From IMG/VR virus record IMGVR_UViG_3300031555_005516: a stretch of DNA of 64,000 bases, one strand, 5' to 3'. The DNA is from a virus. This document shows, piece after piece, positions 1-64,000 of the stretch (positions are counted from its first letter, which is position 1; each line of letters starts with the position of its first letter). A program made the position numbers and the translations under genes. The notes under the pieces are model-generated. The model was given only the letters and a program-made list of their open reading frames with translations. It was not told the origin of the DNA and did not search any database.

Positions 1-65
1 GGAGAGATATGGGACTTGTCTATTGTTGACAAGTCCCCACCCAAAAGTTTGTGCAAAATGCCATA

Positions 66-94
66 TTGACAAATCATTAAGTATATGGTATAAT
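66..94 (+). promoter_or_regulatory. Class I sigma70-type promoter (TTGACA-N17-TATAAT with TG extension)
   Basis: TTGACA at 66-71, TGGTATAAT ending 94, 17 nt spacer; first of 13 near-identical early promoters. Confidence 0.7.
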
Positions 95-130
95 ATATAT
101 GTAAGATAAAGAAAGGAAAGGTACATATCT

Positions 131-421
131 ATGAGACCAAAAGAAATAAACTCTAATATTGACAGAATTATCCACACTTGCACCATCACTGCAAAGTCGA
201 ACGAAGTTCCAAATCTCACACTCCGTTTAAACGATTTGCCCGAAGATAAGGCAAAGAAAATCTATAAAATAGTAAAAAATGCGTTTCGTGAGGTAGAGGT
301 AGTTAGCGAAACCACAGGAGAGGTTTTGATATCTCATTATGTAGCTGATGATTGGTTCGTTCCGCTTTACCGCTATAATTCCATAATGGAAGCAATCATT
401 GCAGTGTGTGAGGGCGAGTAA
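131..421 (+). CDS. hypothetical protein in the antitoxin position, immediately upstream of a MazF-like toxin gene
   Basis: 96 aa ORF with RBS gaaaggaaagg; ends 27 nt before the mazF-like ORF. Confidence 0.45.
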   Translation: MRPKEINSNIDRIIHTCTITAKSNEVPNLTLRLNDLPEDKAKKIYKIVKNAFREVEVVSETTGEVLISHYVADDWFVPLYRYNSIMEAIIAVCEGE

Positions 422-447
422 TCGCCCTCTATAGAGAGGAGATACAT

Positions 448-780
448 ATGGAAATCAAAAGAGGACAAATATATTATGCTGATTTGTCGCCCGTCGTCGG
501 TAGCGAGCAAGGGGGATATAGACCAGTGCTTATAATTCAAAATGATATAGGCAATAAAAATGCGCCAACCACAATCGTTGCGGCAATCACTTCAGTTCAA
601 TCAAAAAAGCGCATACCAACTCACATAAATCTCTCAGGCGCACTAATAAAAGATAGTTGTATATTAACTGAACAGTTGCGTACGATAGACAAGAGCAGAT
701 TAAAATGGTTGGTAACCGAAATTGATGAAAGCCTTATGCAAAAGGTCAACAAAGCAATAATGAAAAGTTTGGGGGTTTAA
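448..780 (+). CDS. mazF: MazF/PemK-family endoribonuclease toxin
   Basis: 110 aa; motifs GQIYYADLSP, GYRPVLIIQND, APTTIVAAITS typical of the MazF/PemK/Kid fold; RBS agaggag. Confidence 0.7.
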   Translation: MEIKRGQIYYADLSPVVGSEQGGYRPVLIIQNDIGNKNAPTTIVAAITSVQSKKRIPTHINLSGALIKDSCILTEQLRTIDKSRLKWLVTEIDESLMQKVNKAIMKSLGV

Positions 781-782
781 AT

Positions 783-60471: not shown

Positions 60472-60690
60472 ATGGAAAATACAACTAAATTTTATAAAGT
60501 AAAATATTTAGGTGTTCAATTAGGTATTTTCGTTACTAACTCAGCCGATTTGGTAGCGCAATCTTGGCTTAATGAATTTCTTTCTTTACATCAAAATACT
60601 CATTTTGAATTAATTGAAGTGCCTTTAAAGCAGGTGTTTTGTAACGGTATTCCCATTAATACTTTAATAGATATAAAGGAGGAAAAGTAA
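60472..60690 (+). CDS. hypothetical protein
   Basis: 72 aa. Confidence 0.35.
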   Translation: MENTTKFYKVKYLGVQLGIFVTNSADLVAQSWLNEFLSLHQNTHFELIEVPLKQVFCNGIPINTLIDIKEEK

Positions 60691-60693
60691 AAA

Positions 60694-60885
60694 ATGAATG
60701 ATTGTTCCGAGCAACATCGTAATAAAGTAAAAGAAGGAGTAAAGTGCTGCCTTCGAGAAATACGTAATTGTAACTCTTGTCCATATTTTGGCGACTGTGA
60801 TCAACTACGAGAGGATATTTTAAGAATGATTATCAGAGAAGAAATAGATGCAACAGACTGGTCAGGTTTTCAGGAGGGGTTCTAA
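60694..60885 (+). CDS. small Cys-rich protein
   Basis: 63 aa. Confidence 0.35.
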   Translation: MNDCSEQHRNKVKEGVKCCLREIRNCNSCPYFGDCDQLREDILRMIIREEIDATDWSGFQEGF

Positions 60886-61463
60886 TGGATCAAAAGAACA
60901 CAATAGTGAAATGTAAGGCGTATCCTAATTGCCTATTTAATCACAATGGGGTATGTGATAACTATGTGATTAACATTGGCGAAGACGGGAAGTGCGACTG
61001 TTATGTTGAGACTGAGCCTATTAGAGGGCAAAAAACCTGTCAAGATGATTGTATTCATTTTGATGATAGTGATCCCATGGTAGGTCCAATATGTTTATTC
61101 AATCATCCTGAACCTCTTAAAGAATTTTATAAAGATATGCCTTGTGACTATTATCATTCAACAAATTATACAAGAGGTCAACGAGCAAACTGTAATATTT
61201 ACGATGATGCTTGTGATGCTTCATTTTTAAAAGAAGATTTAGAAAAAATACAGCAGACATTAGAACAAGACTTTATCCCCTGCACAATGAAAGTAGCTGA
61301 GCTTAACAAGCCTAATAAGAATAAAACTGTTATAAGTGATTATGAACCTTTTCTTACAAAAGCAATTTGTAGTCAATGTAAATATGATACTCACGGACAT
61401 CTTTGTAGTCGTAAAAATGTTGCATCTAATGGTATTTGGACTTGCTGGGAGAAAAAAGAATGA
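60885..61463 (+). CDS. Cys-rich hypothetical protein
   Basis: 192 aa with >20 Cys. Confidence 0.4.
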   Translation: MDQKNTIVKCKAYPNCLFNHNGVCDNYVINIGEDGKCDCYVETEPIRGQKTCQDDCIHFDDSDPMVGPICLFNHPEPLKEFYKDMPCDYYHSTNYTRGQRANCNIYDDACDASFLKEDLEKIQQTLEQDFIPCTMKVAELNKPNKNKTVISDYEPFLTKAICSQCKYDTHGHLCSRKNVASNGIWTCWEKKE

Positions 61464-62575
61464 GGTATGACAGTGATGCAATTAAACAACAACTCACCTT
61501 CCAACAAGTATTCGATTATGTTGCCGAATTGGGGGGCAATCCAAAACTTGATCCATCTGGAGCTGAAGTAATAGTATCTCAAACTATTTGTCATAATCCA
61601 GCCTGCACAGGATCGCACAAGCTATACTATTATCATAACAGTCGCTTGTGGAAGTGTTATACAGAATGCGCAGGAGATGCATTTGACATATATGACTTAA
61701 CGCGGCGCGCAATGAAGATTCAGCGCGGCGAAGAGTGGCCACTATCACGCGCTGTGGGGTATGTTGCCCGCTATTTCGGTATAGCTTCTTCTGAAGACGA
61801 AAATTTTGGAGACTCACAACAAAAACTTCATGATTGGGATATTTTAAAGAATTATCAACAAAATAGTTCCATCAGTAATGATAAAAAAATAATTGAGTTC
61901 AAAGAATTTGATGAAAATATCCTTCAACACTTGCCACGCCCGCGCATTATCCCGTGGCTTAATGAAGGAATAACTCAAGAGATAATGGATTCTCGCGGTA
62001 TCTGTTACGACCCCGTAAATCAAGGCATTGTGATACCTCATTACGATGAAAATGGGGCGCTAATAGGTATCCGTGAGCGCACTCTTATCAAAGAAGAAGA
62101 AGCATACGGAAAGTATCGACCTGCGATTCTTAATGGTATTCAATATAATCATCCACTAGGCTTCGCTTTATATAACTTAAACAATAGCAAAGAGCATATT
62201 AAACAGATGGGTATTGCCATCGTGTTTGAGGGTGAAAAAAGCTGTTTAAAATACGCATCAATGTTTGGCGCCGACAACGACATCTCTGTTGCAACTTGTG
62301 GCAGTAACTTAATTCAGCATCAGGTTGACCTTTTGCGCCAATATGGAGCAAGAGAGATAGTGATTGCTTTTGATAAACAGTTTCAGAAACCTAATGATGC
62401 AGAGTTTAAGCAGTGGACGAAGAAACTAACGGCGCTGCATAATAAATATAGTAAATTAGTAAATATCTCTTTTATCTTTGATAAAAAGGGAGATATGTTA
62501 GGATATAAAGATGCGCCCGTTGACCGTGATGGAGAAACATTTATAAAATTATTTAAAGAAAGGGTGAGATTATGA
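61460..62575 (+). CDS. dnaG: DnaG-like DNA primase (zinc-binding domain + TOPRIM)
   Basis: start ATG 61460 (ATGA overlap); CHNPACTGSHKLYYYHNSRLWKCYTECAGDAFDIYDLT zinc ribbon; TOPRIM-like AIVFEGEKSCLKYASMFG...IAFDKQ. Confidence 0.65.
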   Translation: MRYDSDAIKQQLTFQQVFDYVAELGGNPKLDPSGAEVIVSQTICHNPACTGSHKLYYYHNSRLWKCYTECAGDAFDIYDLTRRAMKIQRGEEWPLSRAVGYVARYFGIASSEDENFGDSQQKLHDWDILKNYQQNSSISNDKKIIEFKEFDENILQHLPRPRIIPWLNEGITQEIMDSRGICYDPVNQGIVIPHYDENGALIGIRERTLIKEEEAYGKYRPAILNGIQYNHPLGFALYNLNNSKEHIKQMGIAIVFEGEKSCLKYASMFGADNDISVATCGSNLIQHQVDLLRQYGAREIVIAFDKQFQKPNDAEFKQWTKKLTALHNKYSKLVNISFIFDKKGDMLGYKDAPVDRDGETFIKLFKERVRL

Positions 62576-62898
62576 AAGGAATTATTTATTGTATTAATCG
62601 TTATGAGGGTATGCGTCTTCTTAAAGAAATTGTAGGAGACGCAGCTCTTGAAGGGCATAGACATACATGTTTTGTAACTAACCAAGATAAAACTTTTGTA
62701 GAATTTGAAAATGGTGATATATGGTATTTATTTAGCTCCTATAATGCAGCGAGAGGATATAGATGGGATTATTGCTTTATAGATAAAAAAATACCGCAAG
62801 AAATTATAGAAGAAAAAATTCTGCCTCATGCTATGGTGTATCATTGGGATTCGCCTGAAGCAAAAATACCAATAGATAGGAGGGTGCATTACTTTTGA
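62572..62898 (+). CDS. hypothetical protein
   Basis: 108 aa. Confidence 0.4.
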   Translation: MKGIIYCINRYEGMRLLKEIVGDAALEGHRHTCFVTNQDKTFVEFENGDIWYLFSSYNAARGYRWDYCFIDKKIPQEIIEEKILPHAMVYHWDSPEAKIPIDRRVHYF

Positions 62899-64000
62899 AT
62901 TATAAACTTTTAGGAAAAATAAATCCGCATTATTCAGCAGTAGAGTAGGTGCTTACCAATAGAGGTATTCCCTACTATGATATCCATCACTGGCTGAATA
63001 CAACAGATGCGGATATAAATGACTTTAATCTATTGGGCACCGATCGATTGCGCAAGGCAGCTCAAACCTTAATAAAAACGATTTCTCAAGGCGCCCGGGC
63101 GCTAGTTATCGTAGACTCAGACTGCGATGGTTTTACCTCGTCTGCGCTTTTAATCAATTACCTGTATGATCACTTCCCAGCTTGGGTTCAAAATAACTTA
63201 GACTGGTTTATTCATAGCGGTAAACAACACGGACTTAGCGATGTCGATGTTGAATGGGCGGCCGCCAATTACGCATTAATCTTGTGTCCAGACGCGAGTT
63301 CTAATGACTATGAGTATCATCTAGCCTTTATTGATAAAGGTGTAGATATCATTGTATTAGATCACCACGAAGCAGATATTGTTTCCCCTAATGCAATAGT
63401 CATAAACAATCAGCTTTGCGCCTATCCAAATAAGCAACTATCGGGCGTTGGCATCACATGGCAGTTTTGTAGATACCTTGACTCACTTATGCACACTAAT
63501 TACGCGCAGAATTATCTTGATCTCGTTGCATTAGGAAATACCGCGGATATGATGTCGCTTCAATCAATAGAAACAAAGCACCTTATAATGAAAGGTTTTC
63601 GCGAGGAAAATATCCACAACCCATTTATCGTAACAATAGCTGAAAGTAATGCCTATTCTCTTGGAGATAAGATTACACCACATGGCGCCGCTTGGTATAT
63701 TGCGCCGTTTGTTAATGCTATGGTGCGTAGTGGTGAAGAAGATGAAAAAGAGCTTCTTTTCAAATCCTTCTTGAAATTTAAGGCTTTTGACTATATATAT
63801 TCAACAAAGCGCGGACATAAACAGGGTGAAACTGAACAATTAGTAACACAAGCAGTACGCACTTGTAAAAATGTAAAGACGCGCCAAACAAAGGCTCAAG
63901 ACGACGCAATGGCGCGACTTGAGAGCAGAATTGAAGAAGAAAATATGATGGCGCATAAAGTATTATTGTTTCTCTTGGAACCAGGTGAGGTAGAGCCGAA
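62895..64000 (+). CDS. recJ: RecJ-like DHH-family ssDNA exonuclease (partial, runs off window end), one in-frame TAG near N-terminus
   Basis: TTG start 62895 (TTGA overlap) 11 nt after RBS aggagg; ...HYSAVE-TAG-VLTNRGIPYYD...; motifs LVIVDSDCDGFTSSALL, DASSND, VLDHHE (DHH); absent from ORF track because of the TAG. Confidence 0.6.

Follow-up and report, generated by a model that had tools for sequence, protein, structure and literature searches.

The 64,000-nt stretch of viral DNA analysed here (IMG/VR record IMGVR_UViG_3300031555_005516; hereafter the window) contains two families of predicted promoters, designated class 1 and class 2. In the reading that we consider probable, both are ordinary Firmicutes sigma-A-type promoter families read by the host RNA polymerase, with class 1 serving a host-takeover block and class 2 a general set of genes. 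The source of the window is a large phage, about 125-140 kb in size, in which TAG is a sense codon; the evidence suggests gut or rumen Clostridia as the host clade, presumed here at that level and no finer. An initial annotation of the window had proposed a temporal switch in which the host sigma factor reads the early class and a polymerase modified by a phage-encoded sigma factor reads the second. The division into two classes largely held up in the present analysis, and the requirement for a modified polymerase did not.

Two promoter families in separate parts of the window

Searching the whole window for TTGACW-N14-TGGTATAAT with at most one mismatch returned 18 sites, against 0.01 expected by chance in shuffled sequences. 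Thirteen of these lie on the + strand between positions 66 and 7483, as many as had been reported for the first 7.5 kb. All 13 predicted promoters are intergenic, lie on the coding strand and combine a 17-nt spacer, a TATAAT hexamer and TG at positions -15/-14; TTGACA is the -35 hexamer in 12 and TGG is present in 11, so that the consensus -35 and extended -10 attributed to this class were recovered. An independent consensus scan identified twelve perfect (12-of-12) promoters with TG in the same block. The gap between TTGACAAAT and TGG/TGGTATAAT is 11 nt instead of the 14 nt originally given, and because of this error the literal patterns (with gaps N14 and N12) gave no match.

These promoters had also been described as almost identical modules sharing an UP-like element. 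The 77-nt modules present a mean pairwise identity of 57% (range 38-75%; 67% in the best subgroup) and split into two sub-types. Class 1B (n=8; sites starting at 1272, 3261, 3465, 4558, 5065, 5915, 6864 and 7455) is defined by phased A/T tracts and CC(T/C)CTTGACAAA, with A-tracts centred near -42, -53 and -65 in phase with the DNA helix. These tracts are missing from the five class 1A promoters (66, 1105, 2719, 4440 and 6745), which present a TTTGTGCA box in place of the AAAATTTTTGAAAAACTTTTCAAAAACC-like element. The UP-like element is hence a feature of eight of the 13 promoters, and the inverted repeat ascribed to it occurs in exact form only once, at 4533-4555. The class 1B tracts resemble an UP element, which would contact the C-terminal domain of the polymerase alpha subunit. 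A match of the class 1B A/T inverted repeat to the CodY box was considered and dropped, given that about 10 of 15 positions agree and that chance can account for this in A/T-rich DNA.

The TTTGTGCA box occurs 10 times in the window (3.2 expected), with eight copies in the early block, and may constitute a candidate binding site for a regulator. Boxes map to 48-55, 1065-1084, 2659-2708, 4360-4409, 6705-6712 and 8614-8621. Upstream of class 1A promoters they are arranged as single, inverted or direct copies, the last exactly 42 bp apart, and they are also found 5' of class 1A-type promoters in two related contigs (L053 and L203).

The early array is cut by the edge of the window. Metagenome contig L203, identical to the window where they overlap, adds 4.5 kb upstream with five more class 1 promoters and 12 more small genes. 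Taken together, the class 1 block spans at least 12 kb and comprises at least 18 promoter copies at a density of one per 0.6 kb, reaching the end of this 14-kb contig at least 4.5 kb beyond the window.

Class 2 was delimited with the pattern TTGAHW-(A/T)14-NNN-TATAAT (at most one mismatch), which yielded 29 sites against 0.02 expected; 27 of them lie from 10.5 kb onward, in line with the claim of more than 20 promoters of a second kind. Their general form is TTGA(T/C/A)(T/A), an A/T-only spacer and TGnTATAAT, with a 17-nt spacer (18 nt at one site) and TG at -15/-14 in approximately 21 of 27. The TTGATT hexamer by which the class had been defined is present in 15 of about 25 sites, and TTGAAA, TTGACT, TTGACA or TTGTTT is found in the rest. 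The listed class 2 sites occupy intergenic positions on the coding strand, many of them starting within the T-run of the terminator hairpin before them, and they head the tRNA array, a suppressor tRNA, the phage sigma factor gene and the replication genes. In both classes the bases preceding the -10 give TGTG or TATG, which corresponds to the Gram-positive -16 'TRTG' motif, and the -10 lies roughly 30-50 nt ahead of a start codon or tRNA. The two families are thus spatially segregated, but they do not partition the window completely: a class 2-type promoter (2119-2147) and a hybrid one (6745-6773) lie within the early block. A further class 2-like + strand site at 9006-9035 (TTGGAT, 18-nt spacer, TGTTATAAT) is directed into the minus-strand gene 9215-9883 at its 3' end and may give rise to an antisense or convergent transcript.

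Both arrangements recur in related phages. The contigs L053 and L054, whose sigma factor is 48% identical to that of the window, present about 17 class 1-type promoters of both sub-types, followed by class 2 promoters from 6.8 kb. In IMG/VR, a 29-nt class 2 pattern with 23 fixed bases matched more than 119 contig stretches. The 80 contigs listed with this pattern mostly measure tens to hundreds of kb, the longest being 402 kb, and homologs of window proteins are encoded by about two thirds of the listed loci, at GC contents of 0.27-0.48. Class 2 promoters are conserved over some 50 nt, including spacer and transcript start, in phages of 27-48% GC. The recurrence of both classes in L053/L054, and of the class 2 pattern in IMG/VR contigs, identifies them as family-wide signals. 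The early genes themselves are poorly conserved between relatives.

Probable recognition of class 2 promoters by the host polymerase

Bacterial genomes were scanned with the class 2 core TTGATTTT-N3-AAAAA-N2-TATGnTATAAT, which returned more than 120 loci, overwhelmingly in metagenome-assembled genomes (MAGs) of gut and rumen Clostridia. Twenty-six of these encode homologs of window proteins and were for this reason considered mis-binned phage contigs; about 22 more are phage-like, having the conserved transcript start or multiple pattern matches. The remaining 72 loci look chromosomal, and in 12 of them a host tRNA gene begins 11-39 nt past the -10. Rfam searches of ten sampled host loci identified transfer-messenger RNA, tRNAs and riboswitches, including a cyclic di-GMP riboswitch located 19 nt downstream of the promoter (locus L429). 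Other extended -10 promoters in those host loci, not selected by the pattern, show TTGACA in 13 of 36 cases, spacers with 67% A/T and, often, AAAATTTTCAAAAA-type upstream tracts, which is the class 1B design. With 72 of its matches in chromosomal-looking sequence of Clostridia, the class 2 core does not present a consensus left unused by host sigma. As judged from sequence, class 1 is a copy of the canonical strong host promoter and class 2 a copy of a host variant used at stable-RNA genes.

The sigma-70-family factor reported at 35083..35979 was confirmed, with Pfam regions 1.2, 2, 3 and 4 all above cut-off. The protein is about 50% identical to Firmicutes SigA, and its best solved relatives are the SigA chains 7l7b and 7ckq, which we take to belong to the Clostridioides difficile and Bacillus subtilis polymerases. 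It aligns from its residue 23 to SigA residues 99-117 onward, with nothing ahead of region 1.2; this start point of the SigA alignment indicates that region 1.1 is missing. The SigA-type contacts are retained: WWIRQ, the H and E that read the TG (H..E) and ERIRQ in the -35 helix. That helix reads SKERIRQ in place of the TRERIRQ of SigA, a single R-to-K change. The change was evaluated as an explanation of the TTGATT hexamer and rejected, because relatives with TRERIRQ (L120-123, L186, L190 and L192) share the TTGATT promoters.

Furthermore, the sigma gene lies directly behind a class 2 promoter in the window and in two relatives (L119 and L121), and the host polymerase must therefore read class 2 first. 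A sigma gene transcribed from the preceding promoter class, after the manner of SPO1 gp28, was not found in any of the three. The initial model, in which host sigma-A reads class 1 only and a polymerase carrying the phage sigma reads class 2 in a gp28-like switch, appears improbable on this evidence. Against it speak the position of the sigma gene, the occurrence of the class 2 core ahead of the tRNA genes of Clostridia hosts, -10, TG and -35 contact residues that are those of SigA, the distribution of the R-to-K change just described and the inclusion of TTGACA and TTGACT among class 2 -35 hexamers. Part of the data would nevertheless suit it: all related contigs with class 2 promoters that were examined have a SigA-like sigma among their core genes, the conservation of these promoters over some 50 nt persists at 27-48% GC, and the window sigma has K for a conserved R in the -35 helix. 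The first of these, together with the density and the transcript start of the phage sites described below, is also compatible with a phage sigma tuned to class 2.

Host reading of both classes is nonetheless the most likely interpretation of the promoter and sigma sequences, and the phage sigma is not needed to define class 2. Further observations weigh against this interpretation. TTGATT is rare among the unselected host promoters (one of 36), which also favours the phage-sigma model; the loci that support class 2 on the host side were themselves retrieved with the class 2 pattern; and the phage class 2 sites are far denser than those of the host and carry a phage-specific conserved transcript start, ATATATGTAAGATAAAGAAAGAGG.

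TAG recoding follows the promoter classes

The early genes were confirmed to be free of TAG, with no in-frame instance in 2963 codons of 30 genes (window and L203). Class 2 genes contain 24 TAG in 12509 codons, a rate at which 5.7 would be expected in the early set (Poisson P ~0.003; P ~0.014 at the gene level). No TAG serves as final stop in the 85 window gene models or in the 12 genes of L203. If TAG, CAA and CAG are counted together as Gln-type codons, a label used for counting and not an amino-acid assignment for TAG, the share of TAG is 0% in early genes, 5% in class 2 genes and 25% in the minus-strand module (9.2-13.6 kb). The absence of TAG from early genes fits their expression before a suppressor tRNA accumulates.

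That the in-frame TAGs are real sense codons is indicated by Pfam domains and tblastn alignments that run across them. GIY-YIG and NUMOD1 domains extend over seven TAGs in the gene at 40993-41850, a GIY-YIG domain lies past five TAGs in 52389-53582, and alignments to relatives span TAGs in the genes starting at 9215, 19652, 28504 and 51847. Many of the TAG-bearing window genes are homing endonucleases. The suppressor tRNA forms a stand-alone class 2 unit, with its own promoter and its own terminator-like hairpin and T run (~42015-42050). TAG probably acts as a true stop at codon 412 of the RNA-ligase-like gene 36233-37627, as judged from homology to relatives, which ends at about codon 403, and from the four TAGs that follow from codon 412; if so, the suppressor tRNA would yield a C-terminally extended form.

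The late structural module was reached via relatives, passing from the primase to the DNA polymerase III alpha subunit and then to a tail-fibre-like protein. In the relative L379 this module contains the tail-fibre-like and other large open reading frames (ORFs) with 4-20 TAGs each, and TAG makes up 42% of its Gln-type codons. No class 1 or class 2 sites were found in 14 kb of this module, which therefore points to a third mode of transcription and to at least three programmes. Start regions in the late modules of relatives (L379 3391-3478 and 12100-12308, L383 3645-3892, L384 3633-3841) follow terminators and carry TTTTAATATATAAT or TAGTAATATATC with no TTG -35, and one contains three TTTTAATTAAAATTT palindromes. 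Such regions may represent a candidate class of late promoters or operators; a late-promoter consensus was not established from three independent sequences, TTTTAATATATAAT and TAGTAATATATC being the candidates. The statement that recoded genes are confined to a later programme thus stands as far as the TAG-free early genes are concerned, but the confinement is incomplete: TAG is sparse in the window, and dense recoding belongs to a late module with neither promoter class.

A proposed order of expression and its alternatives

Under the preferred reading, class 1 would represent a consensus-perfect, high-affinity design reinforced by the UP-like tracts (1B) or the TTTGTGCA boxes (1A), and host polymerase with sigma-A would recognise both classes unaided by the phage. 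If SPO1, T5 and T4 are taken as models, the class 1 block would constitute the immediate-early programme, later shut off through the TTTGTGCA boxes and a CCYCTTGAC...GTCAAGRGG inverted repeat overlapping the -35, and class 2 would run the delayed-early and middle programme. The SigA-like phage sigma lacking region 1.1 could supplement or replace host sigma-A, or serve late promoters. Coding would follow the same order, from TAG-free early genes through TAG-sparse class 2 genes with the suppressor tRNA to a TAG-dense structural module. Differential regulation of the two classes is put forward on the basis of their segregation, the takeover-type genes, the class-specific elements and the codon usage.

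Some points weigh against this order. Early before middle is deduced from gene content and analogy, one class 2-type site (2119-2147) falls inside the early block, and the sigma of the late-module relatives is only ~44% identical to that of the window, so that the TAG-dense module described is not that of this phage. An unlikely alternative dispenses with the switch altogether and regards both families as constitutive host sigma-A promoters firing together, possibly at different strength, the early-looking block being a separately evolving, duplicating accessory module that differs in ancestry and GC content. The host-readable appearance of both classes agrees with it, as do the paralogous genes and duplicated promoter modules of the early block, the poor retention of early genes between relatives and the class 2-type and hybrid sites within the block. 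It is harder to reconcile with the segregation of the classes, which is kept in a relative with a 48% identical sigma, with the class 1-specific TTTGTGCA boxes and -35-overlapping inverted repeats, which suggest class-specific control, and with the lack of TAG in 30 early genes (P ~0.003-0.014).

An extension of the preferred reading, which we regard as doubtful, would couple promoter class and genetic code in a family-wide three-step timer. TAG-free cassettes would be switched off via their class-specific elements; class 2 would produce the suppressor tRNA and the SigA mimic; and the mimic would take over sigma-A-type or -35-less late transcription once host sigma-A is neutralised, enabling the 42%-TAG module.

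The results provide a concrete promoter map, conserved among relatives, for large amber-recoded phages of Clostridia that form an uncultured family; the two motifs can serve there as annotation landmarks for operons and early regions. Distinct transcription units are assigned to the suppressor tRNA and to the gene sets without TAG, poor in TAG and rich in TAG; a phage sigma that reads the second class need not be invoked; and the proposed idea of a code switch acting as a lysis timer becomes testable with a few defined promoters.

An inverted repeat and tandem promoter pairs in the early block

The sequence GTCAAGRGG is the reverse complement of the CCYCTTGAC flank of the class 1 -35. Twelve of its 13 copies in the window lie in the early block, in both orientations (0.45 expected). 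It coincides with the transcript start, where the initial annotation had placed a conserved region, exactly in five and approximately in two of the 13 class 1 promoters. Four pairs of class 1 promoters are arranged in tandem with no ORF between their members (1105/1272, 3261/3465, 4440/4558 and 6745/6864). In all four predicted inter-promoter transcripts the 5' end would pair with the downstream -35 region; a helix of 9 bp closes the predicted fold, and the z-scores range from -3.1 to -5.5. The pairing arms are GAGG/CCTC in two pairs and GGGG/CCCC in the other two, and the 178-nt leader of the 3261/3465 pair is conserved in the relative L053. Such a predicted leader may function as a 5' stabiliser, a small RNA or a repressor operator.

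These observations raise the tentative possibility that GTCAAGRGG and CCYCTTGAC are not promoter parts at all and instead form the arms of an RNA or DNA structure, either a 90-180-nt leader (5' stabiliser or small RNA) or half-sites of an early-shutoff operator. The concentration and dual orientation of the repeat, the consistent folding, the matching arms of two kinds (GAGG/CCTC and GGGG/CCCC), the leader conserved in L053 and the pairing of promoters with no intervening ORF all speak for it. Set against these are the small number of examples (four), among which the GGGG pairs look duplicated and thus leave one compensatory event at most, the existence of tandem promoters elsewhere in L053 and L203 that do not pair, and the similarity of AAGAGG to a plain ribosome-binding-site-like purine run. 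The leader structure has no match in Rfam, and the structural reading assumes read-through of the upstream transcript.

Promoter map and gene content of the window

The predicted promoters and the genes discussed above are compiled in Table 1. The early block contains terminator-like hairpins at 976-999, 2094-2119, 4302-4319 and 6586-6609. According to Pfam and PHROGs, its products include a MazF-like growth inhibitor, a 5'-3' deoxyribonucleotidase-like protein and an exonuclease-like protein, the rest being mainly unknown small proteins. The MazF/PemK-type toxin gene (448-780) belongs to the first early cassette and has no obvious antitoxin partner by Pfam. Its product is 58-63% identical to those of MazF genes in two Eubacteriales MAG loci (L424 and L469), a likeness that suggests a hint at both the host clade and a predicted host shutoff based on mRNA cleavage. 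The tRNA-Thr of the early block (6446-6515, anticodon AGU), located after gene 6009-6404, was missed by default filters and detected in a sensitive Rfam search (35.9 bits).

Table 1. Predicted promoters and associated genes in the window; genes served by a promoter are predicted.
Position	Strand	Feature	Remarks
66..94	+	Class 1A promoter (TTGACA-17-TGGTATAAT)	TTTGTGCA at 48-55; serves 131-421, MazF-like 448-780, 783-977
131..8575	+	Early cassette genes, 18 small ORFs	Stops TAA/TGA only; no in-frame TAG; two paralogue pairs
1105..1133	+	Class 1A promoter, upstream member of tandem pair	Transcript start GTCAAGAGG at 1140-1148; no ORF before next promoter
1272..1300	+	Class 1B promoter	UP-like A/T tracts, CCTCTTGACAAAT; serves 1331-1753, 1788-2108
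2119..2147	+	Class 2-type promoter in early block	TTGACT, A/T-only spacer, no TG; just past terminator 2094-2119, 5' of 2191-2493
2719..2747	+	Class 1A promoter	Two TTTGTGCA boxes (2659, 2701; 42 bp apart); serves 2774-3241
3261..3289	+	Class 1B promoter, upstream member of tandem pair	Flanks CCTCTTGAC at 3257-3265, GTCAAGAGG at 3296-3304
3465..3493	+	Class 1B promoter	Serves 3520-4312 (four small ORFs)
4440..4468	+	Class 1A promoter, upstream member of tandem pair	TTTGTGCA at 4360, 4402 (42 bp apart); start GTCAAGGGG at 4478-4486
4558..4586	+	Class 1B promoter	Sole exact copy of TTTTGAAAAACTTTTCAAAAACC (4533-4555); serves nucleotidase-like 4615-5058
5065..5093	+	Class 1B promoter, TGA variant	Serves exonuclease-like 5153-5869
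5915..5943	+	Class 1B promoter, TGA variant	Serves 6009-6404, probably also tRNA-Thr 6446-6515
6745..6773	+	Hybrid promoter, upstream member of tandem pair	1A upstream region (TGCACAAA at 6705), TTGACT, A/T-rich spacer; start GTCAAGGGG at 6783-6791
6864..6892	+	Class 1B promoter	Serves 6972-7406, paralogue of 6009-6404
7455..7483	+	Class 1B promoter	Sole exact match to the originally described -10/start consensus; serves 7521-8575
10572..10600	-	Class 2-type promoter, minus-strand module	Serves 10532-10161, 9883-9215
13672..13700	-	Class 2-type promoter heading minus-strand module	TTGACT, A/T spacer, no TG; divergent from 13728-13756
13728-13756, 14922-14950, 15843-15871, 15943-15971, 17320-17348, 18044-18072	+	Six class 2 promoters	
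19179..27377	+	tRNA array, 20 genes	Class 2 promoters
20335-20363, 20633-20661, 22129-22157, 24375-24403, 25738-25766, 26058-26086	+	Six class 2 promoters in tRNA array	
29174-29203	+	Class 2 promoter	18-nt spacer
29872-29900, 33309-33337	+	Two class 2 promoters	Fused to terminator
30699-30727	+	Class 2 promoter	
35006..35034	+	Class 2 promoter	TTGACT, A/T spacer, TGTTATAAT; directly 5' of sigma gene, likewise in L119 and L121
35083..35979	+	Phage sigma factor, 298 aa	Pfam regions 1.2, 2, 3, 4
37669..37697	+	Class 2 promoter	Fused to preceding terminator hairpin
41875..41903	+	Class 2 promoter of suppressor tRNA alone	TTGATT, A/T spacer, no TG
41933..42008	+	Suppressor tRNA, anticodon CTA (reads TAG)	ARAGORN; Rfam tRNA 53 bits
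43284-43312, 48727-48755, 51556-51584, 54428-54456, 55048-55076, 58321-58349	+	Six class 2 promoters, replication module	

ARAGORN and Rfam identified 22 tRNA genes in the window: 20 in the array, the tRNA-Thr of the early block and one with anticodon CTA. Within the array, ARAGORN assigns a four-base anticodon (ggat) to the tRNA at 21038-21112 (Rfam tRNA, 45 bits), and a tRNA-Sec-like match at 22008-22092 is weak and under threshold (38 bits). The spacers of the array (21113-28091) are unusually long (200-700 nt), GC-rich and without convincing ORFs, and they may correspond to unknown structured RNAs or degraded elements. Rfam searches of the early block and of these spacers returned nothing besides tRNAs.

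The replication module encodes, among others, a split gyrB, gyrA, an NAD-dependent ligase, a DnaB-like helicase and RNase H, and several homing-endonuclease genes are present within the window. The two parts of gyrB (43369-44898 and 46128-46373) are separated by an insert of ~1.2 kb with an intron-like look, which contains a GIY-YIG endonuclease ORF (45111-45818) and a class 2-like site (44939-44967), and for which Rfam gave no group I intron match. An AAA_24 (recombinase-like) gene at 57390-58289 begins at profile position 27, with a LAGLIDADG endonuclease ORF containing one in-frame TAG (56378-57193) just 5' of it; the region 56106-58289 suggests a second interrupted gene. The gene at 52389-53582 encodes a 397-aa protein with an N-terminal membrane segment, a long coiled coil, a C-terminal GIY-YIG-type domain and five in-frame TAGs, an architecture that we take to resemble that of DUF4041/T5orf172 proteins. 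In addition, an 830-aa protein (30771-33263) contains a Major Vault Protein (MVP) shoulder domain, and its sole matches in a phage collection are 40% identical ORFs in LR756500, LR756501 and LR756503 ('huge phage', 462-735 kb).

For the DnaB helicase, the identity to its counterparts in SPbeta-like and Herelleviridae phages of Firmicutes is 36-38%. The phage collection was searched by megablast with positions 1-20 kb and by tblastn with the sigma factor, DnaB and the MVP-like protein; all matches were distant and none came from a close relative. Related IMG/VR contigs are mainly 100-190 kb in length, some larger; the nearest ones are IMGVR_UViG_3300029305_005988, whose primase is 92% identical, and _004519. 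Extending the window downstream by exact protein matches yielded short contigs only, with no entry for the primase product, and a protein from the upstream extension had no relative in IMG/VR. Three contigs with structural genes (L218, L241 and L265) were considered as relatives and rejected as unrelated small phages.

Comparison with known systems

The pre-early region of T5 and the early region of T4 would be functional counterparts of the class 1 block, which as judged by Pfam and PHROGs shows no homology to them. In T4 middle promoters a MotA box at -30 takes the place of the -35 and phage proteins are required, and SPO1 middle promoters have a consensus unlike that of the host and need gp28. 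The two classes of the window resemble T4 early and middle promoters in that a host-type -10 is kept and the -35 region differs between classes. In class 2, unlike in T4, a TTGA-type -35 is retained at 17 nt, and the class is also seen at host genes; no MotA or AsiA homolog was detected among the window proteins with Pfam and PHROGs.

The takeover module of SPO1 (genes 37-60, Herelleviridae) shares with the class 1 block some 12 kb of small early genes, many short operons, and a strong host sigma-A promoter and ribosome-binding site for each of these; a further parallel is that of a Firmicutes phage of about 130-140 kb. According to its published description (PMC6873191), the SPO1 module occupies a 12.4-kb terminal region, and its small early genes have strong promoters as well as ribosome-binding sites. 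Pfam and PHROGs revealed no homology between the early proteins of the window and SPO1 gp37-60. The window differs in that its second promoter class is host-like and in that the phage is TAG-recoded, with a suppressor tRNA. Firmicutes sigma-A extended -10 promoters present the same TTGACA-17-TATAAT core with TGTG or TATG and, as in class 1B, A/T tracts from about -40 to -65. What sets the phage promoters apart is their density and near-perfect consensus, both typical of phages, along with the TTTGTGCA boxes and the inverted repeat overlapping the -35.

With TAG-recoded (code 15) gut phages the window shares in-frame TAG in conserved genes, a tRNA with anticodon CTA, a large tRNA set and an inferred Clostridia host. 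The same general features characterise phAss-1, a group of TAG-recoded phages of 133-136 kb assigned to Clostridia (PMC10607447). A difference is that, in one class 2 gene of the window (36233), TAG also appears to be a true stop. In code-15 gut phages recoding is concentrated in structural and late genes, the early and replication genes being standard or nearly so (10.1101/2021.08.26.457843; PMC10607447); the terms promoter and sigma factor do not occur in the preprint of Borges et al. (10.1101/2021.08.26.457843) or in PMC10607447. The layout of the window is conceptually ordinary for a phage, and an association of recoding with late genes has been published before.

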